The notes beneath the pieces were generated by a model. The model had not been told where the DNA came from and did not search any database. It saw only the letters and a list, made by a program, of their open reading frames with translations. A DNA stretch of 64,000 nucleotides from Gammaproteobacteria bacterium (lineage in GTDB: Bacteria > Pseudomonadota > Gammaproteobacteria > Eutrophobiales > Eutrophobiaceae), in the NCBI GenBank assembly GCA_965222155.1, contig CBDCTH010000012.1:1536001-1600000 (forward strand), read 5' to 3'. Of this stretch, positions 5,099 to 28,621 are shown piece by piece. Within the stretch, counting starts at the first letter, position 1. The number at the start of each line of letters is the position of its first letter. The position numbers and the translations under genes are program-made.

Positions 5099-5830
5099 TT
5101 ATAAGGCCAGTGAACCCAGGCTGGCGCCGCCGCAGATGTACCAGGTTTGCCCGGTAATAAATCCGCTGTCTTCCTCGCATAAAAATTTGACTACGCGGCC
5201 GATGTCTTCCGGGGTTCCCAGGCGTTTGACCGGAACGCTCTGCGCGATCCTGCTCTTCTGTTCGCTGTCTTCCGGCACCAGTTCATGGAACATGTCCGTC
5301 ACGATGGGACCGGGAGCGACACAGTTTACGGTGATCCCGTCTTTAGCCAATTCCAGCGCCCAGGTGCGAACCATACCGATTTGACCGGCTTTGGTAGCGG
5401 CATAGTTTGTCCTGGTAACCAGCCCCAGTACGCCGCGGGATGATATGAGAATGATCCGGCCGTACTGTGCGCTGCGCATGGCCGGGATAAATTGTTGCGC
5501 CAGCGTGATGGCGCTACCCAGGTGCAGTTGGGTCAGGTAGTCCAGGTCCTCGAGTTTTACGTCTTCCAGTAAATCCGGACGGATCACTCCGGCATTATGA
5601 ATGAAGTCCGTTACCGCATGTTTATTCGCTATCTCCATGCCGACGTCCCGGGTTGCCTGCGGGTCAGCCAGGTCCGCGCTGTAATTGAGCAGACGTTCAC
5701 CAGAGAAGTCGGGAAGCTGCCGGGAGATATTGACGACCCGGTAACCACCGTCCAAAAAACGCCGGGTGATATCGGCCCCGATACCTCGGTTGCCACCTGT
5801 AACGACTACCACTTTATTATTATCTGTCAT
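5099..5830 (-). CDS. Short-chain dehydrogenase/reductase
   Basis: TGGNRGIG, NAG, YAATK motifs. Confidence 0.92.
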   Translation of the reverse strand: MTDNNKVVVVTGGNRGIGADITRRFLDGGYRVVNISRQLPDFSGERLLNYSADLADPQATRDVGMEIANKHAVTDFIHNAGVIRPDLLEDVKLEDLDYLTQLHLGSAITLAQQFIPAMRSAQYGRIILISSRGVLGLVTRTNYAATKAGQIGMVRTWALELAKDGITVNCVAPGPIVTDMFHELVPEDSEQKSRIAQSVPVKRLGTPEDIGRVVKFLCEEDSGFITGQTWYICGGASLGSLAL

Positions 5831-5850
5831 CTTTTATCTCTCTAAGTTAT

Positions 5851-5879
5851 CCATCATTCCGGCGCAAGCTGGAATCCAG
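5851..5879. repeat. REP-like palindrome (CNTCATTCCGGCGCAAGCNGGAATCCAG type)
   Basis: ccatcattccggcgcaagctggaatccag; same unit as inside the 206-bp MITEs. Confidence 0.75.
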
Positions 5880-5901
5880 CCAATACCGTCACGTTTTACT
5901 C

Positions 5902-6336
5902 CTACAGGAGCTCGCTGAATTCGACTGCCGGATCAGCATCCGGCGACGTAGCAAAAAAAACGACCTGACCGGATTTATCCGGCCTGTTGGCGATCCGCAC
6001 CCTACTCCCTGTGTGCAAGGAATCCGCAGCCAGGTATGCAAACAGAACAGGACCACAATCCAGTTTTATCATCCCTGTGTGTAAAGGCAATATATCCTTG
6101 AAAAACCGGTTGGTGCTGGCATGGGTTGTGGTCCAGGAAAGCACCGTGCCCAACGAACTGACTTGTTGCCATAGTAACGTGCTGGTTAAGCAGTGATGAC
6201 AGAACTCCTGCGGGGGATACTGAACCTCATCACACCTGCTACAGACCTGTAGCTTGAATAGCCCATCCCTGGCTGCCTGATTGACCTGCTGCCACAAGGA
6301 GGAGCGTTCAGCGGGGGGGGCTGATTGATTGTTCAT
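5902..6336 (-). CDS. DUF35 Zn-ribbon/OB-fold protein (thiolase partner)
   Basis: CSRC..YPPQEFCHHC Zn ribbon followed by GTVLSWT; overlaps the thiolase stop. Confidence 0.85.
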   Translation of the reverse strand: MNNQSAPPAERSSLWQQVNQAARDGLFKLQVCSRCDEVQYPPQEFCHHCLTSTLLWQQVSSLGTVLSWTTTHASTNRFFKDILPLHTGMIKLDCGPVLFAYLAADSLHTGSRVRIANRPDKSGQVVFFATSPDADPAVEFSELL

Positions 6337-7499
6337 TCAGTTCCCCTCCCCAGGATCACGGCACTGGCACATAAACATCGATCATAATTTACCATGCCAT
6401 AACCGCTGGCCATACCGGTCTTTGCCGCGGCGACCTGGTTGGGCAAACCGGTTGAGGTCAACTGGCGGATCGTCTCAACCGTTCCCAGGAACCCACCTGC
6501 GGCGCCGGCCTGACCCGCGGACAGTTGCCCGCCTCTGGTATTGTGAGGCAGACCCCCGCCGTTCCATGTTAACGGTTGGGTACGTACAAATTCCGCTGCC
6601 GCACCTTTATCACAAAACCCCAAGTCTTCCATCTGGATCATTGAAATGACCGGGTAATCATCGTAAGTCTGCAAAAAATCAATGTCACCGGGGCCAATGC
6701 CGGCCTGTTCATACATTTGATCACGATATAATAGCCAACCACCGCGAAAATGCACGTCATCTTCAAACCAGGCATTGTGTCTCTCCCCTGCTGCCAGCAT
6801 CCTGGCATAAGGAAGACGCAGGGATTCAGCCCGGTCAACCGTCATGACCAGGAAGCCGTCCGCGCCGGCAACGGGCATGACACAGTCGAACAGGTGCAAG
6901 GGTTCACTGATGGGGCGGGCGTTCAGGTAGTCATCCATCGATAGCGCAGTACTGAAGACAGCCGTGCCTGCTGCCAACGCGTTTTCCCTCTGGGCAATAC
7001 AGATACGGCCGAAATCTTCCCGCTCAGCCCCATATTTCTCCATATAGTTGCGGGTGATCATGGCGAAAACGGTATTGGGTCCGCCGGCGCAATAAGGATA
7101 GACGGCATCTGTTGAAAACCGGCTGAAATTTTTAACGAGGTTCACGAATGTATCGGCAGTGGCGGTATCGGCGCCGATACAGGCCACGATATCGGCATCG
7201 CCCGCCTGCACTGCCCGCGCCGCGCGCCGGGCGGCTACCGGGCCGCTGGCGCCTCCCATGGGTATCTGTTCCAGCCAGCCTGGCGAGATATCCAGGTATT
7301 CCGTCATGCTGATGACGCTGTCCGGCGCCAGGGTGAAGCTGGCGATGGCCAGGCCGTCAATGTTGTGTTTTTGCAATCCGGCTGTTTCAAGCATCCTTGC
7401 AAAGGCAGTACCGATAAACCAGGCAGCACTTCGTTCACTGCGCCGCACATAAGGCAAGCTGGTCGCGGCAACCAGCGCGACATCATTATAGGGCAGCAT
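6333..7499 (-). CDS. SCP-x-like thiolase-family protein
   Basis: PLHLFDCVMPVAGADG, YDDYP, NTRGGQLSAGQ motifs; MGGASG at the catalytic Cys position. Confidence 0.88.
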   Translation of the reverse strand: MLPYNDVALVAATSLPYVRRSERSAAWFIGTAFARMLETAGLQKHNIDGLAIASFTLAPDSVISMTEYLDISPGWLEQIPMGGASGPVAARRAARAVQAGDADIVACIGADTATADTFVNLVKNFSRFSTDAVYPYCAGGPNTVFAMITRNYMEKYGAEREDFGRICIAQRENALAAGTAVFSTALSMDDYLNARPISEPLHLFDCVMPVAGADGFLVMTVDRAESLRLPYARMLAAGERHNAWFEDDVHFRGGWLLYRDQMYEQAGIGPGDIDFLQTYDDYPVISMIQMEDLGFCDKGAAAEFVRTQPLTWNGGGLPHNTRGGQLSAGQAGAAGGFLGTVETIRQLTSTGLPNQVAAAKTGMASGYGMVNYDRCLCASAVILGRGTE

Positions 7500-9159
7500 C
7501 TTTTTTCCTGCGCTTGCGCTGTCTCAAGTCGACACAACTACCCTCTTCCACGAGTCTGTTGGCAAGGGTTTTGATTTCGCCACGCTGCAGCTTCTGTGAT
7601 GCAGTCATGGGCAACTCGGTTACGAACAGGTAATAAGCCGGAACCTTGTAGTAAATCAGGTGTTCAAGGCAGAAAGCGAATAAGGCATCTGCCACAGCTT
7701 CATCGGAAGCATATTCTCCCTGTGCGGCTTCACTCAGAATAATGCAAACGCCTACTTCTTCGCCGCGCATTTCATCATAAACAGGCGTTACCGCACAATT
7801 GGCGATTGCCGGGTGCTGGAACAGGATGTTTTCCACTTCCACTGCAGCGATATTTTCACCACTGCGCCGGATGATATTTTTACGGCGATCGACAAAATGA
7901 AAGGAACCGTCCTCACTGATGCGCACAACATCGCCGGTATGGAAATATCCACCATCCCATACCCTGGCAGTTTCCTCCGGGTTTTTATAGTAGCCGGAAA
8001 AGAATCCCTTGCGCGGGTTTTCCCCCCTGGCGCGGATCAATAACTCTCCCGGTTCGCCCGCTCCGACCTCTTCTCCCTGCTCATCCACGAGGCGATACTC
8101 GATGACCTCCGGCGCCCTGCCGATGCAGCGTGTTCCGATATGGCGCGGCTCCTTATTGGCGGTGATACAAACGTGAGTGCCGGTTTCCGTCATGGCCCAA
8201 CCCTCCACCAGGGGGAAACCAAAGCGCTGTTCGAAGCGTTGCAGGTGTTTCGGATCAACCCCCGCACCGAAACCAAATTTGACCTGTTTACCCAGGTTAT
8301 CATTCTCTGTTTCCGGCTGGTTCAATAAAATTGCCGGGATCACGCCCAGGTAGTGCAGGCAGGTGGCCCCGGTAGCGCGTACTGTGTCCCACCAGGTGGA
8401 AGCATGAAAACGGTCCAGCTGAATTATGCAACCGCCACTCATGATCATGGCCATCATGGAGCATAATGCATTCATATGCACCAACGGCAGAGGAGTCAGC
8501 ATTCGCTCCTCTCCATAAGTCAGCCGGCAGTAGCCGTCTATATCAGCGTACCAATCGCCCATGCAGGTAAAGTACTCATTGTTCAGCATGCAGCCCTTGG
8601 GTTTACCCGTTGTGCCGGAGGTATAAAGTACGGCGACCTCGGTATTTCTGTCAGGCGCTGCCGTTGCTGTTTCAAGGCTGCAAGGCGATAGCTGCGCCAT
8701 TGACACGGTGTCTGCGATTGGAATAGGAACAGGGGACAGATTTAAATCTGTCCCCTGTTCGGCTGTATCCTGACGGGCCAGGGCTGCCTGCACTTTCTCC
8801 CGGTAACAGGGCAAACACAGGACGAGACAGGCATCACTGTGGCTGATCACGTAGTTGATTTCACCGGGCAGGAAGCCGGAATTGACCGGTACGACGCTGA
8901 CCCCAAGCTTATTCAAGGCAAGAAAGTGCAGGAAAAAGTCGGCGCGATTGTCCAGCATGACGGCAATTCTATGGCCGTGCCCGTATCCGGCAGCAGCATA
9001 CTGTTCACTCAATGAATTGACGGCCTGGAGAGTCTGGCTATAGGTATAGTCAACCGGGCCTTGATGATACTCCCGGGTAGCCTGGTGCGGGATGTGCAGG
9101 AAGGCCTGTGTCGAGACGTTCCTCCCGGTTTCCAGAAATTTGTTGTACACGGTAGTCAT
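7486..9159 (-). CDS. Acyl/aryl-CoA ligase (CaiC-like)
   Basis: YTSGTTGKPKG, EGWAMTE, FHTGD, RRSGENI motifs. Confidence 0.92.
   Translation of the reverse strand: MTTVYNKFLETGRNVSTQAFLHIPHQATREYHQGPVDYTYSQTLQAVNSLSEQYAAAGYGHGHRIAVMLDNRADFFLHFLALNKLGVSVVPVNSGFLPGEINYVISHSDACLVLCLPCYREKVQAALARQDTAEQGTDLNLSPVPIPIADTVSMAQLSPCSLETATAAPDRNTEVAVLYTSGTTGKPKGCMLNNEYFTCMGDWYADIDGYCRLTYGEERMLTPLPLVHMNALCSMMAMIMSGGCIIQLDRFHASTWWDTVRATGATCLHYLGVIPAILLNQPETENDNLGKQVKFGFGAGVDPKHLQRFEQRFGFPLVEGWAMTETGTHVCITANKEPRHIGTRCIGRAPEVIEYRLVDEQGEEVGAGEPGELLIRARGENPRKGFFSGYYKNPEETARVWDGGYFHTGDVVRISEDGSFHFVDRRKNIIRRSGENIAAVEVENILFQHPAIANCAVTPVYDEMRGEEVGVCIILSEAAQGEYASDEAVADALFAFCLEHLIYYKVPAYYLFVTELPMTASQKLQRGEIKTLANRLVEEGSCVDLRQRKRRKKDAAL
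8727..8760. repeat. Perfect 34-bp palindrome inside the CoA ligase CDS
   Basis: gaacaggggacagatttaaatctgtcccctgttc; core identical to the intergenic palindrome at 2375-2400. Confidence 0.9.
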
Positions 9160-9187
9160 TTATACACAAAGTCTCTGACAGTATCGG

Positions 9188-9466
9188 CTATTGCGACCTG
9201 TTTTCATCCATAGGACAGTTCTCCGAGTACAGGGCAGCAGTAAGGATGAACAGGATGATGAGCAGCGCAATAGCGATGCCGATTGACACAACACTGCCTT
9301 CTACCAGGGGTGCACCCATGAATTCCGCTGCGTAAACACAGAGAAAATCGAACCCCGGCACCAGCGCGATCAGCACAATGATCAGCCTCCGGGACAGTCC
9401 GCCGTGAGTATGCCTGAATTTCAGATATGCGGCGGAGCTAATGGATTTAGGTCGTCCTGACGGCAT
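9188..9466 (-). CDS. Small membrane protein, DUF485/YjcH-like, possibly degenerate
   Basis: Two hydrophobic helices and YAAEFMGAPLVEGSVVSIGI, resembling DUF485; no actP partner follows. Confidence 0.55.
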   Translation of the reverse strand: MPSGRPKSISSAAYLKFRHTHGGLSRRLIIVLIALVPGFDFLCVYAAEFMGAPLVEGSVVSIGIAIALLIILFILTAALYSENCPMDENRSQ

Positions 9467-9967
9467 TTACAGGTAGATAAGAATGTTTTCCAGCGGCGCA
9501 TCACAGTTGAGCAGGTCTACACGCTTGCCGGCGATCCTGAATTCATTTCCCTCAATGCGCAACCGGTGATTGTAGGAACCGGCGAAAACATCCTGTTTTT
9601 CACGCCGATACTGCAACATGACAAAGCGCGAGTTGACGCTGCACTCTCCGCTGTCTGCATCAAAATTGTCCAGGATGATATTGCTTAGCAGGTGTACACT
9701 GCGCGGCTTGGGTTGCAGGGAAAATGCGTTCGGGTGTTTATAGCGCTTGATACGTACAGCCCTGAGCAGCCCGGTCTCATAGATCAGGGAGACATGGTTG
9801 TGCGGGTCCGGTTGGTCCGGAGCCGCCGGCACCCAGTATTCGGCGTCGTCCAGGTACAAAGCGTTCCATTCCTCCCAGCGCTGCTCATCCAGCAGGCGCG
9901 CTTCATGGTACAGGAACTGTTCAATCGATTTGATATCGGGCGGGTTGCCCGGTTGTTCATTCTGCAT
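9467..9967 (-). CDS. Aromatic ring-hydroxylating oxygenase beta subunit
   Basis: IEQFLYHEARLLDEQRWEEW...YWVP...KRVDLLNCD; start at ATG 9967. Confidence 0.92.
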   Translation of the reverse strand: MQNEQPGNPPDIKSIEQFLYHEARLLDEQRWEEWNALYLDDAEYWVPAAPDQPDPHNHVSLIYETGLLRAVRIKRYKHPNAFSLQPKPRSVHLLSNIILDNFDADSGECSVNSRFVMLQYRREKQDVFAGSYNHRLRIEGNEFRIAGKRVDLLNCDAPLENILIYL

Positions 9968-11294
9968 ACTGGGTATTGACCATATAGTTTTTCCAGGTCT
10001 GAAACTGGTGGCGAAAGACCATGTCAGACGTGCCTGCCGCATGCTTGGTCCCGTCTTCCTCTATCTCTTCCTTGCCCAGATAACGGTGTTGACTTACCCA
10101 TTCATTGCTATCCTGCGTCTGCAGGCCATATTGCAACCGGTGATAGGCTTCGTAGTCATCGGGACCAACCACGTTGGCATGGGAATTGATCAGGTTGCAA
10201 TAAGTGATGGAGCGTCGAAACAGTTCTTCCGGCGCCCCGACCTGCCTGAACACCCATGATTCGATAACGGTTTTATTCACGGCCACAGGTTTGACAACGC
10301 GAATCGAGGTGATTGCGCCCTTCAGGGTAAAGCTGGGATAAACCACGGTATTGTGGCGGTTTAGCGCGAGGATTTCCCGCGCCTTCTGCTCTCCGTATTT
10401 CTCGACCAGGGAGTCCATATAGCCGGGAATGGGTGAATAGGCTGAATGGATACTGAACTTGCCCCCGGTGACACTGTGTCCGTAGTTCCAGGCTGTGAGT
10501 CCCATCTTTTCAAAGAACTCGTAGTTGTTGGTGAACGGCGCCAGCATTTCAAGTTCGAACGGTACCGGGTCACCCTCTTTCAGACGTTCATCAAATACCC
10601 GTTTGGCTGTACCGCTGGAGGACTGATGAACGACCATCGGATGCATGGCGTCATTCAGGTTTTCCACAAACATCTTCCAGTTGGAATCATGCAGGTAACG
10701 GAAACAACCACCGGCAATTTCGATTCGCCCTTCCGGGGATCGTTCCACCAGGTTGTCAATGGATACCGCGGCGCCACTCAACCAGGTTTTCAAATCAGGT
10801 CCTTGTGCAGCCAGGCTGGCGAATACCAGACCGTGGTAACTGTCCACCCGCGGCACCCGCTGCATATTGGATTCCGCCTTGCCCTTGCCGAACCCGGAGT
10901 CGCCGTAGGCTTCTTCCCGGGGGATATGGATTAAGGTACCGTCGGTATCGAATACATAACCATGGTAGCTGCAGCGCAACTGCTGCATGTGGCCGCAACT
11001 CTCACCAACCACCTGGGCGCCCTTGTGGCTGCAGCGGTTGAATAACACGTAAACCTTTCCGTCACTGTGCCGGATCATGATGACCGCCTGCCTGCCGATG
11101 CTGGTAGCGAAATAGTCGCCCGGCTGTTTTACCTGGCTGTCGTGACCCACGTAGATCCAGGCCTTTTTCCAGATACGTTCCATCTCCAGGTCAAAGATTT
11201 CGGGATCGGTATAGACATTTCTGTGGACGCAATCCTCCCTGATCAAGCCAGCCAGCCGCTCATTGGTGTAATGTGTCATCTTCGATTCTCCCAT
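9957..11294 (-). CDS. Rieske aromatic ring-hydroxylating oxygenase alpha subunit
   Basis: CSH...CSYH Rieske motif, NWKMFVENLNDAMHPMVVH mononuclear Fe motif, PDD. Confidence 0.95.
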   Translation of the reverse strand: MGESKMTHYTNERLAGLIREDCVHRNVYTDPEIFDLEMERIWKKAWIYVGHDSQVKQPGDYFATSIGRQAVIMIRHSDGKVYVLFNRCSHKGAQVVGESCGHMQQLRCSYHGYVFDTDGTLIHIPREEAYGDSGFGKGKAESNMQRVPRVDSYHGLVFASLAAQGPDLKTWLSGAAVSIDNLVERSPEGRIEIAGGCFRYLHDSNWKMFVENLNDAMHPMVVHQSSSGTAKRVFDERLKEGDPVPFELEMLAPFTNNYEFFEKMGLTAWNYGHSVTGGKFSIHSAYSPIPGYMDSLVEKYGEQKAREILALNRHNTVVYPSFTLKGAITSIRVVKPVAVNKTVIESWVFRQVGAPEELFRRSITYCNLINSHANVVGPDDYEAYHRLQYGLQTQDSNEWVSQHRYLGKEEIEEDGTKHAAGTSDMVFRHQFQTWKNYMVNTQYAE

Positions 11295-11505
11295 TCATTC
11301 CGTTACATTCCGGGTAAATTATAACGCATGATCAATCCAATAACACCTCGCCGCGGGCTATGGCAATAGCCGGCATTTCCTGTGAATTAGGAGGTTTAGC
11401 GTTACTTCTGTGATCAGCCTCGTCCCGGTTTTCCTTGGCAGCATTCAGTTCGGCTGCGACTTGTTCCATTTAAGTCAGAGTCTAAATGAACCTATTTGCG
11501 TTATA

Positions 11506-11898
11506 TTATTCCGGCACTACCGCCGTCGTTTCTATTTCCACCTTGACCCGGTCCTCAATCAGGGCAGAGACTTGCACCATGGCCATCGCCGGGTAGTTCC
11601 TGCCCATGATTTCCCGGTAGACACGCCCAATGTCCTTTACCGAGGACAGATATTCCTGTTTATCCAGGATATACCAGGTCATCCTGGTTACATGCTCAGG
11701 TCCCGCATTCGCTTCGCCCAATACTGCGATAGTATTTGTCAGAGCCTGGCGGATCTGTTCAACGAGACTGTCGCTATGAATAATTTTGTTCTTATCCCAG
11801 CCAATCTGTCCGGCAATAAACACCATCCTGCCTTGTGCGACGATTCCGTTGGAATAGCCTTCAGGTCGGGGCCAATCCGGTGGTTGTAATATCCGCAT
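11506..11898 (-). CDS. RidA/YjgF family enamine deaminase (AbmF-like)
   Basis: LQPPDWPRPEGYSNGI, GQIGW, KVEIETTA. Confidence 0.9.
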   Translation of the reverse strand: MRILQPPDWPRPEGYSNGIVAQGRMVFIAGQIGWDKNKIIHSDSLVEQIRQALTNTIAVLGEANAGPEHVTRMTWYILDKQEYLSSVKDIGRVYREIMGRNYPAMAMVQVSALIEDRVKVEIETTAVVPE

Positions 11899-12078
11899 AA
11901 GTGATAGGTTATCTGATTAATGATTTTTTCAGGCCGTCAGTTCTACGATTGCATTATAGCCGCAATAGTATTCACATGTCTGCTGATATGATATAGTTCC
12001 TGCCTGTAATCCACCTACAAGGGTGAAGCCTTCACCCGGCATTTGACATCATTCGTTTCATATTGAGGAAAGCACCTT

Positions 12079-13812
12079 ATGAAGCCTTATTTTGAGAACA
12101 TGCAACGATTCGGCAAAGAACTGAAGCAAGGCCGGATCAAGCGTGCGACTCCAAGCATGGAACAGTTGAAGCAGGTTCAAGCGGGAATTGAAGAGCGTAA
12201 GAAAGACGTCGAGAACGCAGGTTTTTCTACGGAGCAAATCAACAAGCGCGGCGCCATGACCGTCTGGCAACGCCTGGAATATTTGATCGACCCAGGAACC
12301 TGGCGTCCATTGCACAGCCTTTACAATCCGATGGATAACGCAAACGGAGCAACCAACGTGGTCGACGGCCTTGCCAAGGTCGCCGGCCGCTGGGCGGTAG
12401 TGATCGGTTTTGATAACAAGGTGCTGGCCGGAGCCTGGCTCCCCGGCCAGTCGGATAATATACTGCGTGTTACCAACCTCGCAAAACGACTTCATATCCC
12501 GCTGATCTGGCTGGTCAACTGCAGCGGAGTAAAATTGGATGAACAGGAAAAGTTCTATGCCAACCGGCGTGGGTCCGGCACACCTTTTTATCGCAACGCA
12601 GAATTGAATCAACTGGGTATCCCGGTTCTAGCCGGTATTTACGGCACAAATCCTGCCGGTGGTGGTTATCACGGCATCAGTCCCACCATACTTCTTGCCC
12701 ATAAAGATGCGAACATGGCCATAGGCGGTGTCGGCATCGTCTCGGGCATGTCGCCAAGAGGGGGCTTCAGCGCGGAGATGCTTGAAGAACTGGTGGAAAA
12801 AACCCGCACGTTCAGCGCCAAACCTCCAGGCCGGGTTGAGACTCATTACCACGAAACCGGATTTTTTACGGCAGTCTACGAGGAAGAAACTGAAGTGCTT
12901 GACGGCATCAAGGAATATATGGAAGCCATACCTGCATACAAACCTCATTTTTTCCAGGTTGCCGAACCCGCCGCGCCGGCATATCCGGCTGACGACCTGT
13001 ATTACCTGTTACCCCATAACCAGAAAGAAGTGTATTCCTTTGACGATATACTATCCCGATTGACGGACGCCAGTGAACACATGGAATTCCGCCCGGACTA
13101 CGGGCCCGAGGTGTATACAGGACTGTGCAGATTTGACGGACTTGTGATTGGCTGTATAGGAAATCGTTCCGGCTACCTCGGTAAAGGTTATCCGGAATAT
13201 GCCGACTATCCCGGTATGGGAGGGAAACTGTATCGTCAGGGCTTGATTAAAATGAACGAATTCGTCACCCATTGCGGGCGCGACCGCATCCCCGTCATCT
13301 GGTTTCAGGATACCTCCGGTATCGACGTCGGCGATCTGGCGGAAAAAGCCGAGTTGCTTGGGCTGGGTCAAGGCTTAATTTATTCCATACAGCAAACCGA
13401 CCTGCCAATGATGCTTGTCGTCTTGCGCAAGGGGACAGCCGCAGCTCACTACCTGATGGGTGGGCCGACCGCAAACCAACACAACGCGTTTACGCTGGGC
13501 ACGCCGGCTACGGAGATTGCGGTCATGCATGGTGAGACCGCAGCAGTTGCCATGTACTCCAGACGTGCGGTCAAGGAAAAGGATGCCGGCAGGCCGCTGG
13601 ATGAGGTCGCCGATAAAATGAACAACCTGGCGGAGCAATACCGGAAACACTCCAGTCCTGAGTACTGTGCGCGTTATGGGCTGGTTGATGAGGTCGTTGA
13701 CCTGGCGGAATTAAGAAATTATCTTACGGCTTTTGCCGGCGCAGCTTATCAGAACCCGCGTTCCATCTGCCCCAAACACCAGTTGCTGCTGCCAAGAATT
13801 ATAAAGGGATAA
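12079..13812 (+). CDS. gcdA: Glutaconyl-CoA decarboxylase carboxyltransferase alpha subunit
   Basis: VNCSGVKLDEQEKFYANRRGSGTPF, GTNPAGGGYH, QDTSGIDVG, RKGTAAAHY and C-terminal YQNPRSICP, characteristic of GcdA. Confidence 0.9.
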   Translation: MKPYFENMQRFGKELKQGRIKRATPSMEQLKQVQAGIEERKKDVENAGFSTEQINKRGAMTVWQRLEYLIDPGTWRPLHSLYNPMDNANGATNVVDGLAKVAGRWAVVIGFDNKVLAGAWLPGQSDNILRVTNLAKRLHIPLIWLVNCSGVKLDEQEKFYANRRGSGTPFYRNAELNQLGIPVLAGIYGTNPAGGGYHGISPTILLAHKDANMAIGGVGIVSGMSPRGGFSAEMLEELVEKTRTFSAKPPGRVETHYHETGFFTAVYEEETEVLDGIKEYMEAIPAYKPHFFQVAEPAAPAYPADDLYYLLPHNQKEVYSFDDILSRLTDASEHMEFRPDYGPEVYTGLCRFDGLVIGCIGNRSGYLGKGYPEYADYPGMGGKLYRQGLIKMNEFVTHCGRDRIPVIWFQDTSGIDVGDLAEKAELLGLGQGLIYSIQQTDLPMMLVVLRKGTAAAHYLMGGPTANQHNAFTLGTPATEIAVMHGETAAVAMYSRRAVKEKDAGRPLDEVADKMNNLAEQYRKHSSPEYCARYGLVDEVVDLAELRNYLTAFAGAAYQNPRSICPKHQLLLPRIIKG

Positions 13813-13854
13813 GGAACCTCTGACAGGTCCCGGGTGGACTTGTTCAGTGCTTAC
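13813..13854. repeat. Short internally deleted copy of the GGAACCTCTGA MITE family
   Basis: taa-ggaacctctgac...ggacttgttcagtgcttac begins at the gcdA stop codon; both ends match the element at 38290-38464. Confidence 0.6.
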
Positions 13855-13880
13855 ACAACATTACTGGTAAAATCAGGTTT

Positions 13881-14009
13881 ATGGAACAGGCTTTGGTAGT
13901 TTTCTTCAATGGTCTCGGCGGCGTATTCGCCGGCATGGCAATGTTGTATCTTGCCATCAGGCTACTCGCCCTGATGGCCGATAAGCAGACCGGGGACAAG
14001 GAAGAATAA
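13881..14009 (+). CDS. gcdD: OadG/GcdD-like small membrane subunit (42 aa; not in the ORF track)
   Basis: MEQALVVFFNGLGGVFAGMAMLYLAIRLLALMADKQTGDKEE, single TM; TAATG overlap with the beta subunit start. Confidence 0.78.
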   Translation: MEQALVVFFNGLGGVFAGMAMLYLAIRLLALMADKQTGDKEE

Positions 14010-15112
14010 TGGCGTTTATCCAGAACATGGGAATTTTTTCCATTACGCCCGAATTGCTGGTGATGTGGCTGATAGGTCTGACACTGATCTACCTGGCTGT
14101 TACCAGGCAGTATGAACCACTGTTGTTGCTGCCGATAGGATTTGGCATTCTTCTGGCCAACCTGCCGCTGACCCAACTAATGGAGCCCGGCGCTGGTTTG
14201 CTTTGGCGCTTCTATCACTATGGGATCGAATGGCGCATCATTCCACCCCTGATCTTCCTGGGCCTTGGCGCACTGACCGATTTCGGCCCGTTACTGTCGC
14301 GACCATTGCTTATCTTTCTGGGCGCCGGTGCACAGGTGGGAGTTTACCTTACTTTTTTTCTGGCCTACGGGATGGGATTCAACCTGGAAGACGCTGCCAC
14401 CATCAGCATTATCGGCGGTGCGGACGGACCGACGACCATCTTTCTTGCGGCCGAACTGGCGCCGCACCTGCTTGGCGCCTGCGCCGTTGCCGCCTATTCC
14501 TATATGGCCCTGGTGCCTATTATTCAACCCCCTATCATGCGTCTGCTGACAACAGAGAATGAACGGAAAATCCGTATGCATAAAGGTCGCAAGGTCAGTT
14601 CCAGGGAGAAACTGTTGTTTCCGATAACAGCTGCCCTGGTGATCATATTGATGGTGCCGGCTTCGGCGCCCCTGATATCCATGTTCATGTTGGGCAACCT
14701 GTTCCGCGAATCCAAGGTAGTCGAGCGCCTGACCGACGCCGCCCAGAATTCCCTGATGAATATTGCGACCATATTCCTCGGCATCAGCGTAGGCGCCACC
14801 ATGAGCGCAGACAGTTTTTTGCGCGCCGATGTCATTCTTATTTTCTTCCTGGGCCTGTTCGCGTTCATGATCAGTACGGCAAGCGGCATACTGCTGGCTA
14901 AGCTGCTGAATATTTTTATCACGAATAAAATCAATCCCCTGGTCGGCGCCGCCGGCGTATCTGCCGTGCCTATGGCAGCCCGGGTTGTTCAGAAAATCGG
15001 TGCTGAGGCCGATAAAAAGAATTATTTACTTATGTTTGCCATGGGCCCCAATATCGCCGGTGTTATCGGCACCGTCATTGCGGCCGGTATATTTTTAACG
15101 ATGTTGCAATAA
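14009..15112 (+). CDS. gcdB: Na+-translocating decarboxylase beta subunit
   Basis: EPLLLLPIGFG, IIGGADGPT, AYSYMALVP, GVSAVPMAARV, GPNIAGVIG (OadB/GcdB motifs). Confidence 0.95.
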   Translation: MAFIQNMGIFSITPELLVMWLIGLTLIYLAVTRQYEPLLLLPIGFGILLANLPLTQLMEPGAGLLWRFYHYGIEWRIIPPLIFLGLGALTDFGPLLSRPLLIFLGAGAQVGVYLTFFLAYGMGFNLEDAATISIIGGADGPTTIFLAAELAPHLLGACAVAAYSYMALVPIIQPPIMRLLTTENERKIRMHKGRKVSSREKLLFPITAALVIILMVPASAPLISMFMLGNLFRESKVVERLTDAAQNSLMNIATIFLGISVGATMSADSFLRADVILIFFLGLFAFMISTASGILLAKLLNIFITNKINPLVGAAGVSAVPMAARVVQKIGAEADKKNYLLMFAMGPNIAGVIGTVIAAGIFLTMLQ

Positions 15113-15128
15113 ACTCAGGAGAAAAGTT

Positions 15129-15350
15129 ATGGCGGAAGACGTGTTGGCGCCCTTGTCAGGCACCATCTGGAAGATCACGGCAGCGCCGGGTGAAGTCGTA
15201 GAAGAAGATGATGAGGTGCTGATCATTGAGGCATTGAAGATGGAAACACCGATATTTGCACCTTGTGACGGCAAGGTGAAAGAGATTTACGTGAAGGAAG
15301 GCGATACGGTGGATGAAGATCAATCCTTGATGTCTATTGAGCCTGAATAA
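15129..15350 (+). CDS. gcdC: Biotin carboxyl carrier subunit
   Basis: APLSGTIWK...EALKMET biotinyl domain. Confidence 0.88.
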   Translation: MAEDVLAPLSGTIWKITAAPGEVVEEDDEVLIIEALKMETPIFAPCDGKVKEIYVKEGDTVDEDQSLMSIEPE

Positions 15351-15363
15351 TTGAGAGGTAACC

Positions 15364-16521
15364 ATGTTTTTTGAATTAACCGAAGAGCAGCGTCTGGTAC
15401 AAGACACTGCGCGACGATTTGCCTTGGAAGATATCGCACCTACGCTTGAAGAAGAAGAAAAAAACCATGAGTTCAAACTGGAACGCGTGGCTAAAATGGG
15501 CGAGCTGGGGTTTTTTTCGTGTGTGCTGCCGGAACAACTGGATGGAAACGGCATGGGTTTTCTGGAATCCGTACTCATGGCAGAACAGATTGGCCAGGTA
15601 TCGGCCTCCTGGCGACTGCCCTTCAACATGCAGAATCTTGGCGCCCCGTTATCGGTGGCCAAATTCGGTACGGACGAGCAGAAAGAGAAATACATTCCCG
15701 GCTGGATCAACGGCACGAAAATGGGATTCTTCGCCATGACCGAACCGGACACCGGCTCCGACGTCTCCAGCATGAAGACCCATGCCATCGACAGGGGCGA
15801 TCATTATGAACTGCATGGCAGTAAAATATGGATATCCAACGCCCACGTGGGCGATGCCGGCCTGTTGTATGCCTATACGGACAGGGCCAAAGGCAATAAA
15901 GGCATCAGTTGCTTTATCATCGAACCCAAGACCCTGGAAGGTTGTACTGCCCGGCCCATCGAAACCAAACTGGGACTGCATTGTTCTCCGACCGGTGAGT
16001 TTGTCTTCGAGGGCGCGCAGATTCCCAAAAGCGCCCGGCTCGGCGAACTCAATAACGGTTTCAAGATGTGCATGTGGCAATTGAACAATACCCGCATCGG
16101 TTGTGCCGCCGGCGCGCTTGGCGTGGCCGGCGGCGCATTGCAACTGGCCATCGACTATGCAAACGAGCGCAAACAATTCGGCAAGTCTATTTCACGTCAC
16201 CAGATGATCCAGTCGCAGATAGCCGACATGGTATTGGAACATCAGGCCGCGCAACTGCTGGTATACAAGGCTGCCTGGTTAAAGGATCAGGGGAAACCCA
16301 ACCAGTATGAGACATCCGTCGCCAAACTGGCCGCGTCCGAAGCTGCCGTACACGCGGCAAACGAGTGTATGAAAATCTTCGGTTCCTACGGCTATTCCAC
16401 GGAATATCCGGCTGAGCGGTTCTATCGCGACGCCAAGTCCCTGCAGATAGTGGAAGGGACTTCAAATATACAGAAAATGATCATAGCGGGCATGGCCTGT
16501 GGTCATACCTCCAACCGCTGA
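15364..16521 (+). CDS. Glutaryl-CoA dehydrogenase, non-decarboxylating type
   Basis: Acyl-CoA dehydrogenase fold with RxxxNM (WRLPFNM), YAYTD, GYSTEYP and VEG (Val rather than Tyr before the catalytic Glu), recalled from the Desulfococcus multivorans enzyme; adjacent to gcd. Confidence 0.8.
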   Translation: MFFELTEEQRLVQDTARRFALEDIAPTLEEEEKNHEFKLERVAKMGELGFFSCVLPEQLDGNGMGFLESVLMAEQIGQVSASWRLPFNMQNLGAPLSVAKFGTDEQKEKYIPGWINGTKMGFFAMTEPDTGSDVSSMKTHAIDRGDHYELHGSKIWISNAHVGDAGLLYAYTDRAKGNKGISCFIIEPKTLEGCTARPIETKLGLHCSPTGEFVFEGAQIPKSARLGELNNGFKMCMWQLNNTRIGCAAGALGVAGGALQLAIDYANERKQFGKSISRHQMIQSQIADMVLEHQAAQLLVYKAAWLKDQGKPNQYETSVAKLAASEAAVHAANECMKIFGSYGYSTEYPAERFYRDAKSLQIVEGTSNIQKMIIAGMACGHTSNR

Positions 16522-16531
16522 CTACGGAACA

Positions 16532-17296
16532 ATGGCTGAACTCAGTGATAAACACGTGGTGGTTACCGGCGGTGGCAGGGGTATAGGCGCGGCAATAGCC
16601 GCACAAATGAATCGGCTGGGAGCCAGGATTACCCTGATGGGTCGAACGGAAAGCTCGTTACGTTCCCAGGCCGAACGACTGGACCATGCATCCGGTGTGC
16701 AGGTAGACGTGACTAATGAAGATGACGTACAAGCAGGGTTTGCTGAAGCTGTAGCCCGGTTTGGCCCTGTTGACATCCTGGTGAATAACGCCGGCACTGC
16801 CAACAGCAGTCCATTCAAACGCATCGATAGCGATAGCTGGGGACGAGCGATAGCAGTTAACCTGAACGGTGTGTTTTATTGCAGCAAGCAGGTGCTGGAC
16901 GGAATGCTGGAGGCTGACTGGGGCCGTATCATCAATATAGCCAGCACTGCCGGGCTTACCGGCTATGCTTATGTTACGGCTTATTGCGCGGCCAAACACG
17001 GTGTAATCGGCTTGACACGCTCCCTGGCTCTGGAACTGTCCAGGACCGGCATAACCGTCAATGCGATCTGTCCGGGCTATACTAAAACGGACTTGATTAC
17101 TGACGCAATAACCAGAATTATGGATAAAACGGGCATGTCGCTGGAAGATGCCGAAGCGCGCCTCAAGTCAGCAAATCCGCAACATCGGTTTATCGAACCG
17201 GAAGAAGTGGCAACGGCGGTAGCCTGGTTATGTCAGCCCGGCAGCGAATCTATCACCGGCCAATCCATCCCCATCGCCGGTGGAGAAGTCATGTGA
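16532..17296 (+). CDS. SDR, 3-hydroxyacyl-CoA dehydrogenase-like (AbmB-like)
   Basis: TGGGRGIG, NNAG, STAGLTGYAYVTAYCAAKHG. Confidence 0.88.
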   Translation: MAELSDKHVVVTGGGRGIGAAIAAQMNRLGARITLMGRTESSLRSQAERLDHASGVQVDVTNEDDVQAGFAEAVARFGPVDILVNNAGTANSSPFKRIDSDSWGRAIAVNLNGVFYCSKQVLDGMLEADWGRIINIASTAGLTGYAYVTAYCAAKHGVIGLTRSLALELSRTGITVNAICPGYTKTDLITDAITRIMDKTGMSLEDAEARLKSANPQHRFIEPEEVATAVAWLCQPGSESITGQSIPIAGGEVM

Positions 17297-17317
17297 CAAA
17301 ACCAGGGAAATAAATCA

Positions 17318-18127
17318 ATGAATATGCAAGGATTTAAACCGAAACATTTTGACTGGTCATGTTCCGGAGGCATAGCCAAGTTGACCTTGAACAGGCCGGA
17401 GAGAAAAAACCCGCTGACTTTCGATTCCTATGCGGAACTGCGTGATACATTCCGTCATTTAACCGGCGCTGATGATGTCAAGGTCGTTATCATCACCGGC
17501 GCCGGAGGGAACTTCTGTTCCGGTGGCGACGTTCACGACATCATAGGCCCGCTGACGCAAATGGATATGAAGAGCCTGCTTGAATTTACCCGCATGACCG
17601 GAGACCTCATCAAGGCCATGATCCACTGCCCGCAACCCGTTATTGCTGCGGTAGACGGCATTTGTGTGGGCGCCGGCGCCGCTATCGCCATGGCGAGCGA
17701 TATCCGCATCGCTACCCCGGAAGCAACAACCGCTTTTTTGTTTACCCGCGTCGGCCTGGCCGGCTGCGACATGGGAGCTTGCGCCTTACTGCCCCGGATT
17801 ATCGGCCAGGGTCGCGCTGCCGAATTACTGTATACCGGCCGCTCCATGGCGGCGGAAGAAGGGATGCGCTGGGGATTTTATAACACCCTCTCATGCGCCG
17901 ATTCGTTACTCGCTGATGCAGACAAGCTGGCTGAGCAGTTGCTCAGAGGGCCGACTTTTGCCCACGGTATCACCAAGACCATGCTGCGTCAGGAATGGAA
18001 TATGTCCCTTGAACAGGCTATTGAGGCAGAAGCCCAGGCCCAGGCAATCTGCATGCAAACCGAAGATTTTCGCCGTGCGTATACTGCATTTACCAACAAG
18101 GAAAAGCCTGTATTCGAGGGTGACTGA
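17318..18127 (+). CDS. Enoyl-CoA hydratase/isomerase (AbmC-like)
   Basis: [33 protein letters not shown]. Confidence 0.9.
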
Positions 18128-19290
18128 TGGCGGACCGCAGCTACCTGGGCTGGCCTTTTTTTACCCCGGAACACAGGCAGTTAGCCGGGGAACTGGATGA
18201 GTGGGCCGGACGGCAATTGAATCATCCACTGCCGGATGATGTCGATAACGCCTGCAAAGAGTTGCTTGCCCGATTAGCCGAGGCCGGTTGGCTCAATTAT
18301 TCAGCGCCCGCTCCCGGAGATGTTTCCACCCTCCCCCTGGATGTGAGATCCTTGTGTCTCATTCGTGATATCCTGGCGCGCCATTCCGGTCTGGCGGATT
18401 TTGTTTTCGCAATGCAGGGTTTGGGCAGCGGAGCGATTACCTTATTTGGCAACCATACACAAAAAAATGATTATCTGCCCGCGGTCCGCAGTGGTAAAAA
18501 AATTGCCGCTTTTGCCCTGTCTGAGTCGGAAGCCGGTTCCGACGTTGTGGCCCTCGCCACCAACGCCGTTTGCGCTGGGGATGAGTACATAATCAATGGC
18601 GAGAAAACCTGGATTTCAAACGGAGGCATCGCCGATTATTATACCTTGTTCGTCAGGACCGGGGAGCAACCCGGCGCCCGCGGACTGAGCGCCTTCATTG
18701 TTGATGCCGACAGTGAGGGACTCGAAATAGCCGAACGTATCGATGTGATTGCGCCCCATCCACTGGCGCGTATCAGGTTCAAGGACTGCAGGGTAGCGAA
18801 AACAAAACTGCTGGGCATGCCGGGGGACGGTTTTAAAATTGCCATGACCACGCTGGATATCTTTCGTTCAAGCGTCGGCGCGGCCGCCCTGGGTTTTGCC
18901 CGACGCGCGCTGGATGAAACAGTGAACCATGCCGCTACGCGGCAACTGTTCGGCATGGCGCTGGCTGATATGCAAATGACCCAGGCCAGGATCGCCGACA
19001 TGGCTGTGGCCATTGATGCGAGCGCCCTGTTGGTTTACCGGGCCGCCTGGACTAAGGACAGCGGCGCTGCGCGGGTGACGCGGGAAGCGGCAATGGCTAA
19101 ATTGTACGCGACCGAATCCGCCCAGGAGGTTATCGACCAGGCCGTGCAATTATTTGGAGGGCGCGGCGTAACCCGCGGCGAAAAAGTGGAAGAACTGTAC
19201 AGGGAAATCCGCGCGTTGCGCATCTACGAAGGCGCATCCGAGATACAAAAACTGATCATAGCCCGCCAGACCCTGGATAATGCAGGTTGA
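18127..19290 (+). CDS. Acyl-CoA dehydrogenase (AbmD-like)
   Basis: [33 protein letters not shown]. Confidence 0.9.
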
Positions 19291-19311
19291 TATGATCATT
19301 TCCGTCTTCCT

Positions 19312-20601
19312 ATGCGGGTTGCATTAACTTCACTGGGGTGCCGCCTGAATGAAGCCGAGCTGGAACACTGGGCAACCGGTTTCCAGGCGGCCGGGTACCG
19401 GTTATCCAAATCCGTTGACGATGCCGACCTGGTGGTTGTCAATACCTGTGCCGTTACCGGGGAGGCAGTAAAAAAATCCAGGCAACTGATTCGGCGCACC
19501 CAGCGGCGCAATGCAAAAGCCAAACTTGTCGTCAGTGGGTGCTATGCAAGCCTGCAACCCGGTATCATAAATGAGCTGCCGGGTGTCGACTTGATTGTCA
19601 GTAATCCGGAAAAAGATAACCTGGTTGCCATTGTAAAACAGCGGCTCTCTGCTGAAGCCATGCCGGAAACGGCAACTGAGCCGGGGGAAGCAGCCTTGTT
19701 TGCCCGGGGGCGCAACCGGGCTTTTATCAAAATACAGGATGGTTGCCGGCATAAATGTACATTCTGCATAGTCACGGTTGCCCGGGGTGCGGAACGCAGC
19801 CGGGCAATTAAGGACATCATCGGGGAGATCAACGGATTACACTCACGCCAAATCCTGGAAGTTACCCTGACAGGCGTACACATCGGTGGCTACGGGCATG
19901 ATCTCGGAACGGATTTATCATTCTTAATTAAAACGATACTCAGTGAAACCGATGTGCCCCGGCTGCGTCTGGGTTCGCTGGAGCCCTGGAATCTCGATGA
20001 GAATTTTTTTATGCTTTTCGACAACCCCAGGGTCATGCCGCATTTACATCTGCCCCTGCAAAGCGGCAGTGATAGCGTACTCCGGCGCATGGGCCGGCGC
20101 TGTATGACCAAGGAATTTTTGGGCCTGGTACAAGCTGCAAGGGATTGTGTTCCTGAAATAAACGTAACAACAGACGTTATCACCGGATTTCCAGGTGAAA
20201 CTGACACGGAATGGCAACAAACCCTGGATTACTGCCACGCAATCGGGTTTCCTCATATCCACGTATTTCCTTATTCCCCGCGCACCGGCACCAGAGCTGC
20301 AACCTTGCCGGGACAAATACCTGTAGAAGTGAAAAAACAGCGCTGCCGGCAACTGCATTTACTGGCGCAACAATCGCACCATGACTTCATGCGGCGTTAC
20401 ATCGACCGTTCTTTCCCTGTATTGGTGGAAAACGACATCGGTATTATAAATGAACTACCGGTCCGCTTCGGTTATTCTCCAAATTACCTGCGCACCGCAA
20501 TACCTGTTTCCGGCAACTCCCCCGACGCCAATAACATTGTGACCGCCCATGTCAAATACTACGATACGGCTACTGCCACCTTGGTGGCGGCTGCAAAGTA
20601 G
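19312..20601 (+). CDS. mtaB: tRNA t6A37 methylthiotransferase MtaB
   Basis: SLGCRLN, NTCAVT, IKIQDGCRHKCTFC, HVFPYSPRTGT. Confidence 0.82.
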   Translation: MRVALTSLGCRLNEAELEHWATGFQAAGYRLSKSVDDADLVVVNTCAVTGEAVKKSRQLIRRTQRRNAKAKLVVSGCYASLQPGIINELPGVDLIVSNPEKDNLVAIVKQRLSAEAMPETATEPGEAALFARGRNRAFIKIQDGCRHKCTFCIVTVARGAERSRAIKDIIGEINGLHSRQILEVTLTGVHIGGYGHDLGTDLSFLIKTILSETDVPRLRLGSLEPWNLDENFFMLFDNPRVMPHLHLPLQSGSDSVLRRMGRRCMTKEFLGLVQAARDCVPEINVTTDVITGFPGETDTEWQQTLDYCHAIGFPHIHVFPYSPRTGTRAATLPGQIPVEVKKQRCRQLHLLAQQSHHDFMRRYIDRSFPVLVENDIGIINELPVRFGYSPNYLRTAIPVSGNSPDANNIVTAHVKYYDTATATLVAAAK

Positions 20602-20680
20602 CCGTACACGGGTCCTGAAACAGAGGGTTTACCGGTTCGACATCAGCGGATAACGCGCCATCAGGTCAACAAACAGGTAA

Positions 20681-21160
20681 TCAGCGCGTCTCCCGGGCGG
20701 CAATATACTCCTGCACGGTAATTTCCAGGGTTTTGAGTTTGTTGTCGATCACTTTTACTCTTGCCAGGTCCTTACGGATATCGCCCACACTGGAAAAAGC
20801 GCCCAGCATGGGTGGATTTTTCAGGGCCGCATAACCCTGCTGCATCTGTTCTCTGATAGTTCGGGCCTGATCAGGGGAGACTTGAAGTTTCCAGACCCGG
20901 GACTTGAGTTTTCCAAGCCGGCGCCGTACGGCATCACGGGCCAGTTCCAGTTCGGCATACTCAGCACGCATCTTTGCCCTGCGCCTGGCGTCTTCTGATA
21001 CATCCTGCTCCTGCGCCTGCTGGATGGGGGGCGCCTGCTGTGACGGAACGACAGACGCTTGTCCGGGCTCTTCTTTATGAGTTCCGGCAAAATCAAGGTA
21101 TAAGTACCCAACTCCTCCTGCAATCAGGATAAGAGTAATAATAACTATTTTTCCATTCAT
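20681..21160 (-). CDS. Hypothetical membrane-anchored coiled-coil protein
   Basis: N-terminal TM segment followed by a helical charged region. Confidence 0.6.
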   Translation of the reverse strand: MNGKIVIITLILIAGGVGYLYLDFAGTHKEEPGQASVVPSQQAPPIQQAQEQDVSEDARRRAKMRAEYAELELARDAVRRRLGKLKSRVWKLQVSPDQARTIREQMQQGYAALKNPPMLGAFSSVGDIRKDLARVKVIDNKLKTLEITVQEYIAARETR

Positions 21161-21311
21161 ATTACGAAGTTGTCCGATCGCTAACGCGCTTATTCAGGTT
21201 AAATATCATGTAGATCATTTAACTTTATGTTTTTCTGGAAATTCTGCTTGATTTATTCTCATCAACAGTGTACAAGTCATATCCTGGTTTAACGCGACAT
21301 GGTGAGAACTG

Positions 21312-28206: not shown

Positions 28207-28293
28207 GCTATAACTCCGGTTCTGAAACAATACATGTTTGTGCGCCGCATCATAGTGCCAGGAAGTTGATTTGTCAACGTTTATGCCAATTAT

Positions 28294-28621
28294 GGGGACA
28301 CAATACTTAATTCAGGAAAAATAAATCTGCTTCCTTTTCCACAGAACAGGGCAAACGCATACTTTTGAATTCAGACGTTTTTACCCGATTCCGTCATTCT
28401 GGCGCAAGCCAGAATCCAGTGAATAACCCTTCATTACCCTGAGCATGCGCTGTTGTTTGACTGGATGCTGGCATTCGCCAGCATGACGGGCGGCGTTGTC
28501 CGGTTGGTTTCCTGTCTTCTGCAACAGAATCCAAAAGTATGCGTTTGCCCTGTTCCACAGAATTAAATATTGTGTCCCCTGAATCCCCTCACAGAATTAA
28601 ATATTGTGTCCCCTGAATCCC
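28294..28621. repeat. REP doublet (GGGGACACAATA family) interrupted by a MITE, right arm tandemly duplicated
   Basis: ggggacacaatacttaattc (28294) versus gaattaaatattgtgtcccc (28560, 28594). Confidence 0.8.
28347..28552. mobile_element. 206-bp MITE, ISAs1-type ends
   Basis: TIR cagggcaaacgcatacttttg; 10-bp TSD ttccacagaa on both sides; near-identical inverted copy at 42593-42798. Confidence 0.93.

Follow-up and report, generated by a model that had tools for sequence, protein, structure and literature searches.

A glutaconyl-CoA decarboxylase of the sodium-pumping family beside a putative non-decarboxylating glutaryl-CoA dehydrogenase in a gammaproteobacterium with the genes of an aerobe

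Glutaryl-coenzyme A (glutaryl-CoA) arises from lysine, tryptophan and dicarboxylic acids. How an organism equipped for oxygen respiration disposes of this intermediate is the question raised by a 64,000-nt stretch of a gammaproteobacterial genome (assembly GCA_965222155.1, contig CBDCTH010000012.1; hereafter the window, to whose first position the operon coordinates refer), which carries genes for a glutaconyl-CoA decarboxylase (Gcd) of the Na+-translocating type and, directly after them, an acyl-CoA dehydrogenase that we call Acd1. We consider it likely that glutaryl-CoA is degraded here by Acd1 together with a Na+-pumping Gcd complex, the cassette doing in this genus what gcdH, the gene for the decarboxylating glutaryl-CoA dehydrogenase, does in sister genera. 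What is unexpected is the host, the enzymes themselves belonging to known families. According to one published source, facultative anaerobes use the decarboxylating GcdH and obligate anaerobes use a non-decarboxylating dehydrogenase (Acd) plus Gcd, and acd and gcdBC transcripts were present in a nitrate-reducing consortium (PMC5852087).

The decarboxylase subunits and the dehydrogenase Acd1

Nine closely packed open reading frames (ORFs) run on the + strand from 12079 to 20601. The first five form the block that a preliminary description of this DNA had taken for a complete four-subunit Gcd with its dehydrogenase; all five ORFs, including the 42-aa delta gene, were found on the + strand with matches to the corresponding families, and the spacing among them goes from a 1-base overlap up to 68 bases. 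Gene identities, signature residues, linkage, distribution and the exchange of position with gcdH described below are direct observations. The operon reads as follows.

12079..13812, + strand: gcdA, glutaconyl-CoA:biotin carboxyltransferase, alpha subunit (577 aa; matches solved GcdA and Carboxyl_trans)
13881..14009, + strand: gcdD, delta subunit, predicted membrane anchor (42 aa; OAD-gamma-like N-terminal helix only)
14009..15112, + strand: gcdB, beta subunit of the Na+-translocating carboxybiotin decarboxylase family (367 aa; OAD_beta)
15129..15350, + strand: gcdC, biotin carrier (73 aa; lysine within E-A-L-K-M-E; Biotin_lipoyl)
15364..16521, + strand: acd1, putative glutaryl-CoA dehydrogenase of the non-decarboxylating type (385 aa; NF045552, 3mpi)
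16499..17296, + strand: short-chain dehydrogenase/reductase (SDR), probable 3-hydroxyacyl-CoA dehydrogenase (adh_short, 208.7 bits)
17318..18127, + strand: enoyl-CoA hydratase, crotonase family (NF006107, 487.9 bits against a cut-off of 330)
18127..19290, + strand: acd2, second acyl-CoA dehydrogenase, ordinary type (acyl-CoA dehydrogenase domains; no Arg; Y-E-G)
19312..20601, + strand: ninth packed ORF

The alpha subunit matched Carboxyl_trans (PF01039) with 318 bits, and its residues 2-576 aligned with the solved GcdA proteins of Acidaminococcus (1pix, 745.6 bits) and Clostridium symbiosum (3gf3, 712 bits). The next structure in the Protein Data Bank (PDB) was a propionyl-CoA carboxylase beta subunit at 124.9 bits, and all other carboxyltransferases scored at most 125 bits; a grouping with methylcrotonyl- or methylmalonyl-CoA carboxyltransferases, which the preliminary description had named as a refuting outcome, was thus not seen. 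By this full-length likeness to solved GcdA the subunit is GcdA, predicted to transfer CO2 to biotin, and its gene is single-copy in the genome. GcdB matched OAD_beta (PF03977) over profile positions 3-349 of 349 with 513.2 bits (cut-off 31.6) and TIGR01109 with 486.1 bits (cut-off 190.6), and gcdB is the sole OAD_beta gene of the genome. GcdB is therefore placed in the beta family of Na+-translocating decarboxylases and predicted to export Na+. The oxaloacetate decarboxylase Na+ pump OadABG shares this beta family and the gamma-like N-terminal helix, but the carboxyltransferase of the window is of the acyl-CoA type, not the pyruvate/oxaloacetate type, and oxaloacetate-specific beta models score GcdB at about 420 bits against a cut-off of 820.

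The 42-aa GcdD reached 20.8 bits with OAD_gamma (PF04277), under the gathering score of 27, and covered profile positions 1-40 of 76 only. Of 80 related loci, 22 gave a tblastn match to gcdD (E <= 0.01) at the corresponding position. In 18 of these 22 the ORF measures 38-43 aa and runs up to the gcdB start, while in the remaining four the frame is open further upstream and a longer ORF was listed. Eight positions were invariant in a 16-row alignment (F8, N10, G11, G14, V15, G18, L22, Y23), and the gcdD stop codon overlaps the gcdB start. Because of the same-place matches and the invariant positions across related loci, gcdD is not a chance ORF; its predicted part as an anchor within the complex follows from conservation. 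GcdC matched Biotin_lipoyl (PF00364) with 60.6 bits (cut-off 22.1). The canonical biotinylation motif is A-M-K-M, whereas the biotinyl-lysine of the window lies in E-A-L-K-M-E. Among 53 aligned homologues A-L-K-M occurred in 32, all from proteobacterial loci, with A-M-K-M in 20 and A-M-K-T in one. One gamma locus, L011, has A-M-K-M.

The complex resembles GcdABCD of Acidaminococcus fermentans and Clostridium symbiosum in having the same four subunit types, with a GcdA match from end to end and a full OAD_beta profile. The gcd systems of these fermenters have a longer delta subunit and a linker-bearing GcdC. The window differs in its short GcdD of only 42 aa, in its 73-aa GcdC with A-L-K-M and in its host, a gammaproteobacterium that respires oxygen and not a glutamate fermenter; glutaconyl-CoA would come from a dehydrogenase and not from 2-hydroxyglutaryl-CoA dehydratase.

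Four acyl-CoA dehydrogenase domains were recognized by Pfam in Acd1. The top NCBIfam model was NF045552, the Desulfococcus-type glutaryl-CoA dehydrogenase Acd (427.3 bits, with the second model at 349.9), and the top solved structure was 3mpi (339.6 bits), with which R84-x-x-x-N88 and V363-E364-G365 of Acd1 align at identical residues. The earlier reading of an RxxxN and a VEG motif as signs of the non-decarboxylating type agrees with both results. The two glutaryl-CoA dehydrogenase types are said, in work of Wischgoll et al. in 2010, to differ by a strictly conserved Tyr-to-Val exchange beside the catalytic Glu, and the carboxylate-binding Arg is reportedly kept in both. We examined these residues in a 59-row alignment of acyl-CoA dehydrogenases that contained the two of the window, four others of the genome and 53 from related loci chosen by at least 90% coverage and no stop. 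The Acd1 clade had R-[LV]-P-F-N and V-E-G in 33 of 33 rows, and all ten Desulfobacterales Acd rows had R-V-x-x-N and V-E-G. One Syntrophales row had the Arg and Asn but L-E-G; the GcdH rows (9/9) had R-S-x-M-S and Y-E-G, and all remaining rows were without the Arg. In the tree, 44 signature-bearing rows stood on one side of a branch and 15 others on the other side (support 78.9, with few outgroups).

Acd1 is not GcdH-like: decarboxylating GCDH structures scored about 187 bits, identity to a true GcdH was 32%, and Tyr-Glu-Gly is absent. It shares with Desulfococcus multivorans Acd (3mpi/3mpj; NF045552) the top structure and model, the same Arg..Asn and Val-Glu-Gly residues and the linkage to gcd, acd1 adjoining gcd genes in both gamma and beta loci. 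It differs from the Desulfococcus type in lying below the family cut-off, in being 44-49% identical to the Desulfobacterales proteins encoded beside gcdA, and in forming a separate 33-row clade. With GcdH (3d6b, 1siq) it would share the substrate, and it does share the conserved carboxylate-binding Arg and a genomic slot (see below), whereas GcdH has Tyr-Glu-Gly and R-S-x-M-S at about 32% identity, needs no Gcd complex and conserves no decarboxylation energy. Acd1 thus misses one curated cut-off yet carries the mechanistic signature of the non-decarboxylating type, and its product would be glutaconyl-CoA.

The products, the Na+ pumping, the path of the electrons and what the SDR, the hydratase and Acd2 do are predictions, which we put together as follows. 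Acd1, a flavin adenine dinucleotide (FAD) enzyme, would oxidize glutaryl-CoA to glutaconyl-CoA with the carboxylate retained, Arg84 binding the carboxylate and Val363 standing in place of the Tyr of decarboxylating enzymes. Electrons would pass from Acd1 to electron-transfer flavoprotein (ETF), then to ETF:quinone oxidoreductase and the aerobic chain. GcdA would transfer the carboxyl group of glutaconyl-CoA to the biotin of GcdC, with release of crotonyl-CoA, and GcdB, anchored with the 42-aa GcdD, would decarboxylate carboxybiotin and export Na+. The hydratase and the SDR could then convert crotonyl-CoA to acetoacetyl-CoA; the top NCBIfam models for the SDR were of the 3-hydroxybutyrate dehydrogenase and FabG types, and the position of its gene after acd1 is conserved in the genus.

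The gcdH slot and competing explanations

Two features on the opposite strand lie to the left of the operon.

11506..11898, - strand: RidA-family protein, divergent neighbour and left edge of the swapped slot (Ribonuc_L-PSP, 82.3 bits)
5099..11294, - strand: divergent cluster of Rieske oxygenase alpha and beta, DUF485, acyl-CoA ligase, thiolase-like, DUF35/ChsH2-OB and SDR genes (Pfam)

In a sister genus of the same family (genome G031, locus L091), MarR, RidA and gcdH genes lie on one strand, followed by SDR, hydratase and Acd2 genes on the other. The flanking proteins correspond to those of the window, with identities of 66% for RidA, 63% for the SDR, 73% for the hydratase and 71% for Acd2. 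Between RidA and the SDR, where L091 has gcdH, the window has gcdA-D-B-C-acd1, and the shared flanks therefore place the cassette in the gcdH slot. This points to replacement of gcdH by the cassette. The same equivalence ties the SDR, hydratase and Acd2 genes to glutaryl-CoA metabolism with either enzyme type, and it is the strongest single argument for the cassette doing the work of GcdH.

Genomes of relatives were searched with a GcdH query from a Burkholderiales locus (L027:14689-15813; 685.6 bits to 3d6b). Orthologues (at least 42% identity) were observed in 13 of 61 genomes. Three of the 14 other family genera are among the holders, at 70-73% identity; within these 61 genomes the genus itself (23 genomes) and the second Gcd-bearing genus had none. 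The 14 other family genera thus comprised three with GcdH, one with Gcd and Acd1, and ten with neither, and no family genome had both. That second Gcd-bearing genus, the only other one in the family with gcdA (G028:C1:2343000-2362900, locus L092), has its genes arranged as gcdA-gcdC-acd1, too close together for gcdD or gcdB to fit in.

The Rieske-ligase-thiolase cluster lies upstream of gcdA not only in the genus but also in L024, L046 and L092; it was absent from the gcdH locus L091. It is a possible feeder pathway. Its company with the gcd cassette also bears on the best of the alternatives, in which the complex and Acd1 act on a different substrate, such as a substituted glutaryl- or glutaconyl-CoA or a 2-enoyl-dicarboxylyl-CoA delivered by that cluster. 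Acd1 forming a clade of its own under the NF045552 cut-off would suit this idea, as would a Rieske alpha subunit whose substrate cannot be assigned by NCBIfam because it lies far under every cut-off (197.7 vs 780.95). We regard it as improbable, since GcdA aligns over its full length with two solved glutaconyl-CoA enzymes (745.6 and 712 bits), the cassette sits exactly in the gcdH slot of a sister genus, GcdH and Gcd with Acd1 are mutually exclusive in the family, and the carboxylate-binding Arg and the Asn are those of 3mpi. No reductase or ferredoxin gene was seen beside the Rieske cluster.

Degradation of glutaryl-CoA itself by Acd1 and Gcd is also consistent with what the rest of the genome contains. 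We searched the whole assembly (4.55 Mb in 12 contigs; markers 100% complete, 7.28% contamination), and tblastn and Pfam agreed on nine full-length acyl-CoA dehydrogenases and one fragment. NCBIfam did not separate GcdH from other acyl-CoA dehydrogenases, and PDB searches and the GcdH query were used instead. The seven dehydrogenases encoded outside the operon had top PDB matches to isovaleryl-CoA, short-chain, long-chain, methylsuccinyl-CoA, CarC-like, FadE5-like and ACAD11-like enzymes; Acd2 has Y-E-G and no Arg; and the top matches of the GcdH query were Acd1 and the isovaleryl-CoA enzyme at 31-32% identity. By structure match, motif and GcdH query, no decarboxylating GcdH was present among all nine full-length enzymes of the genome, which answers the check for a gcdH elsewhere that had been proposed for this locus. 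There was also no match to the 2-hydroxyglutaryl-CoA dehydratase (HGD-D) family in the genome, and therefore no other source of glutaconyl-CoA is visible.

These searches speak to a second alternative, that Acd1 is an ordinary short-chain dehydrogenase or still decarboxylates, with Gcd redundant, vestigial or fed by another source of glutaconyl-CoA. The small margin of 3mpi over butyryl-CoA dehydrogenase (339.6 vs 315.1 bits) and the curated cut-off that Acd1 does not reach lean toward it. We find it highly improbable, because Acd1 has an Arg that ordinary acyl-CoA dehydrogenases lack and a Val for the Tyr of nine of nine GcdH rows, the search for an HGD-D dehydratase came back empty, the five genes are without exception intact and retained in the genus (22 of 22 other genomes), and the genome has no GcdH to cover the function. 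As a separate observation, a 564-aa acyl-CoA dehydrogenase encoded elsewhere in the genome (G000:C12:1204659-1206353, L084) scored 599 bits to 6es9, a solved acyl-CoA dehydrogenase of 551 residues, and 289 bits to 8ciw, a (2S)-methylsuccinyl-CoA dehydrogenase, which hints at an ethylmalonyl-CoA-type pathway.

An aa3-type cytochrome c oxidase is encoded on the same 3.5 Mb contig as the operon (CtaD 704.9 vs a cut-off of 670.75; CoxB 187.9 vs 147.7) and was the only haem-copper oxidase match in the genome. ETF alpha and ETF:quinone oxidoreductase are encoded on this contig as well. A bd oxidase and NarG were looked for in the genome and not found, and two Rnf/Nqr-type membrane subunits were present. 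The organism is an aerobe by gene content, because the aa3 oxidase is present and neither a bd oxidase nor NarG was found, a call that covers these enzymes. Reverse operation, in which a Na+ gradient would drive carboxylation of crotonyl-CoA to glutaconyl-CoA for reduction by Acd1, is hardly credible here: biotin-dependent sodium pumps are reversible in principle and a reverse glutaconyl-CoA route has been proposed for Syntrophus, but an aerobic chain with ETF:quinone oxidoreductase favours oxidation, the gcdH whose place the cassette has taken is catabolic and lies beside beta-oxidation genes, and no low-potential donor for Acd1 was identified.

In four metatranscriptome libraries from two studies, short contigs 90-99% alike fell on pieces of gcdA, gcdD/B, gcdC, acd1, the SDR, the hydratase and acd2, and of RidA and Rieske alpha. 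The operon itself served as query in choosing the runs, whose records are contigs; several bins beside it had no cover, and such holes prove nothing. We take these contigs as a weak hint of expression. A promoter and terminator scan of 11400-21300 gave 12 promoter-like sites (shuffle mean 9.2) and 10 terminator-like sites (shuffle mean 10.8) and was uninformative.

Several observations weigh against the oxidative, Na+-pumping route through Acd1 and Gcd. The score of Acd1 falls short of the curated NF045552 cut-off of 470 bits, 3mpi leads butyryl-CoA dehydrogenase 4l1f by only 24 bits, and the joint clade of Acd1 with the 44-49% identical Desulfobacterales Acd is weakly supported (78.9). GcdD is without the C-terminal half of the OAD_gamma profile, which bears on the docking of GcdA to the membrane part, and GcdC of Desulfobacterota loci has A-M-K-M where the window has A-L-K-M. 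NqrA was looked for in the genome and not found, and no wider sodium economy is thus shown. The RNA-library contigs come from relatives and not from this strain, and may include carried-over DNA. Finally, the window GcdB query found no GcdB in G028, a genome that is 97% complete and has gcdA, gcdC and acd1; the query was also unmatched in G031, G024 and G035, and these searches, like that of G028, were made without a positive control. In G028 the pump subunit is either lacking or too far diverged, or else the carboxyl group takes another route.

Distribution and origin of the cassette

In our sample of relatives GcdA was present in all other genomes of the genus (22 of 22), in one of 14 further genera of the family and in none of 24 other families. 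An even sample of the class gave one of 399 others (one genome not scored), while 53 of 201 genomes had GcdA in a sample of Desulfobacterota, the phylum of a Desulfobacteraceae metagenome-assembled genome (MAG). Because every genome searched in the genus carries GcdA but few relatives do, a foreign origin of gcdA in this lineage is supported, and the counts favour anaerobes as its older holders.

We kept 80 related loci out of 167 relatives. About 14 gamma loci among these had the whole operon with the upstream Rieske, ligase and RidA genes. Beta-proteobacterial loci had the order gcdC-acd1-gcdA; their GcdB shows about 50% identity, and a true gcdH often lies close by. Both routes occur in one neighbourhood in a Burkholderiales MAG (G436, L027:8579-19088), with gcdC, acd1 and gcdA on one strand and, on the opposite strand, a MaoC-PTA fusion, a full-length OAD_beta (about 50% identical to the window GcdB), a true gcdH, a thiolase and a 3-hydroxyacyl-CoA dehydrogenase. 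Some titles of the source records look unreliable: several third-party MAGs titled Enterobacteriaceae (L006, L024, L037) fall within uncultured gamma/beta clades, and GcdA and Acd1 do not differ between L025, under an Anaerolineae title, and L023, under a Betaproteobacteria one.

The GcdA tree had 77 rows, with four of the 80 loci left out for less than 95% coverage. All gamma and beta rows formed one 41-row clade (support 100), which midpoint rooting placed among Desulfobacterota rows in a tree without an outgroup; the genome's own methylcrotonyl-type carboxyltransferase, only 24% identical to GcdA, was not used as one. Acd1 fell inside a strongly supported clade of 33 gamma/beta-proteobacterial rows, with the Syntrophales protein bearing Leu-Glu-Gly as its sister. 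The GC (guanine plus cytosine) content of the operon, 0.52-0.55, equals that of the genome (0.51-0.57 per contig), and the acquisition is therefore old.

The preliminary description had proposed horizontal acquisition from a Desulfobacterota-like donor, with energy-limited or fluctuating-oxygen, Na+-rich niches as a conjectured setting. Horizontal origin is supported by the distribution, which marks the cassette as foreign to the lineage; it was neither recent nor specific to this organism, as the 41- and 33-row clades and the GC content indicate, but old and common to a large gamma/beta-proteobacterial clade. Since the genes are nested in gamma/beta clades and the operon has the GC content of the genome, the immediate source was probably another proteobacterium. 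The Desulfobacterota part of the proposal fits the GcdA tree for the clade as a whole under midpoint rooting only, the direction from donor to recipient being unrooted, and Acd1 is just 44-49% identical to Desulfobacterales Acd.

A protein search for relatives of Acd1 in metagenomes gave at least 120 clusters at 79% identity or more. JGI/IMG already labels many of them "glutaryl-CoA dehydrogenase (non-decarboxylating)", and the NCBI label is "acyl-CoA dehydrogenase family protein", with Pseudomonadales, Xanthomonadales and Woeseia among the organisms.

Other features of the window and meaning of the locus

The first 2 kb of the window have a GC content of 0.716, against about 0.53 elsewhere. 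An ORF at 2-1894, open at its 5' end, has seven matches to RTX calcium-binding repeats and a serralysin C-terminal domain. The ORF at 4053-5060 covers only positions 222-384 of 384 of the AMP-binding profile, plus AMP-binding_C, and may be a truncated or frameshifted ligase gene or have had its start codon called too late. A polyhydroxyalkanoate (PHA) synthase (PhaC) and an acetoacetyl-CoA-type thiolase are encoded at 26419-30618, about 7-11 kb downstream of the operon; between them lie a gene for a PIN-domain protein (28650-29066) and, overlapping it, an ORF of 142 aa, the two perhaps forming a toxin-antitoxin pair. Further along we observed a 491-aa Sel1-repeat protein (32864-34339, 137 bits) and, at 46437-49772, what looks like a partner-switching module, in which a protein of 939 aa bearing a SpoIIE phosphatase domain at its C terminus adjoins an anti-sigma-type kinase (HATPase_c_2). 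An HsaA-like oxygenase subunit of a flavin-dependent monooxygenase (56873-58081) scored 229 bits, under its cut-off of 450.

In full-text literature that lacks most subscription journals, we did not find the Acd and Gcd route described for invertebrate symbionts or for aerobic members of the gamma- and beta-proteobacteria. The locus contradicts the division between obligate and facultative anaerobes given at the outset, as an aa3-bearing genus carries the "anaerobe" route in every genome searched and has no GcdH. We lean, by a narrow balance, toward seeing Na+-pumping glutaconyl-CoA decarboxylation as an overlooked and widespread trait of uncultured aerobic gamma- and beta-proteobacteria, with an Acd subfamily of its own, a minimal delta subunit and an A-L-K-M carrier, and with gcdH displaced in situ in at least one lineage. 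Such displacement would point to a selective gain from decarboxylation energy even with oxygen respiration. For structural studies, the 42-aa delta subunit and the 73-aa carrier make this a naturally minimal Gcd complex. Should the route be active, glutaryl-CoA catabolism would give these aerobes a sodium-motive bonus, and inferring lifestyle in metagenomes from the presence of gcdH or of acd and gcd would be unsafe.

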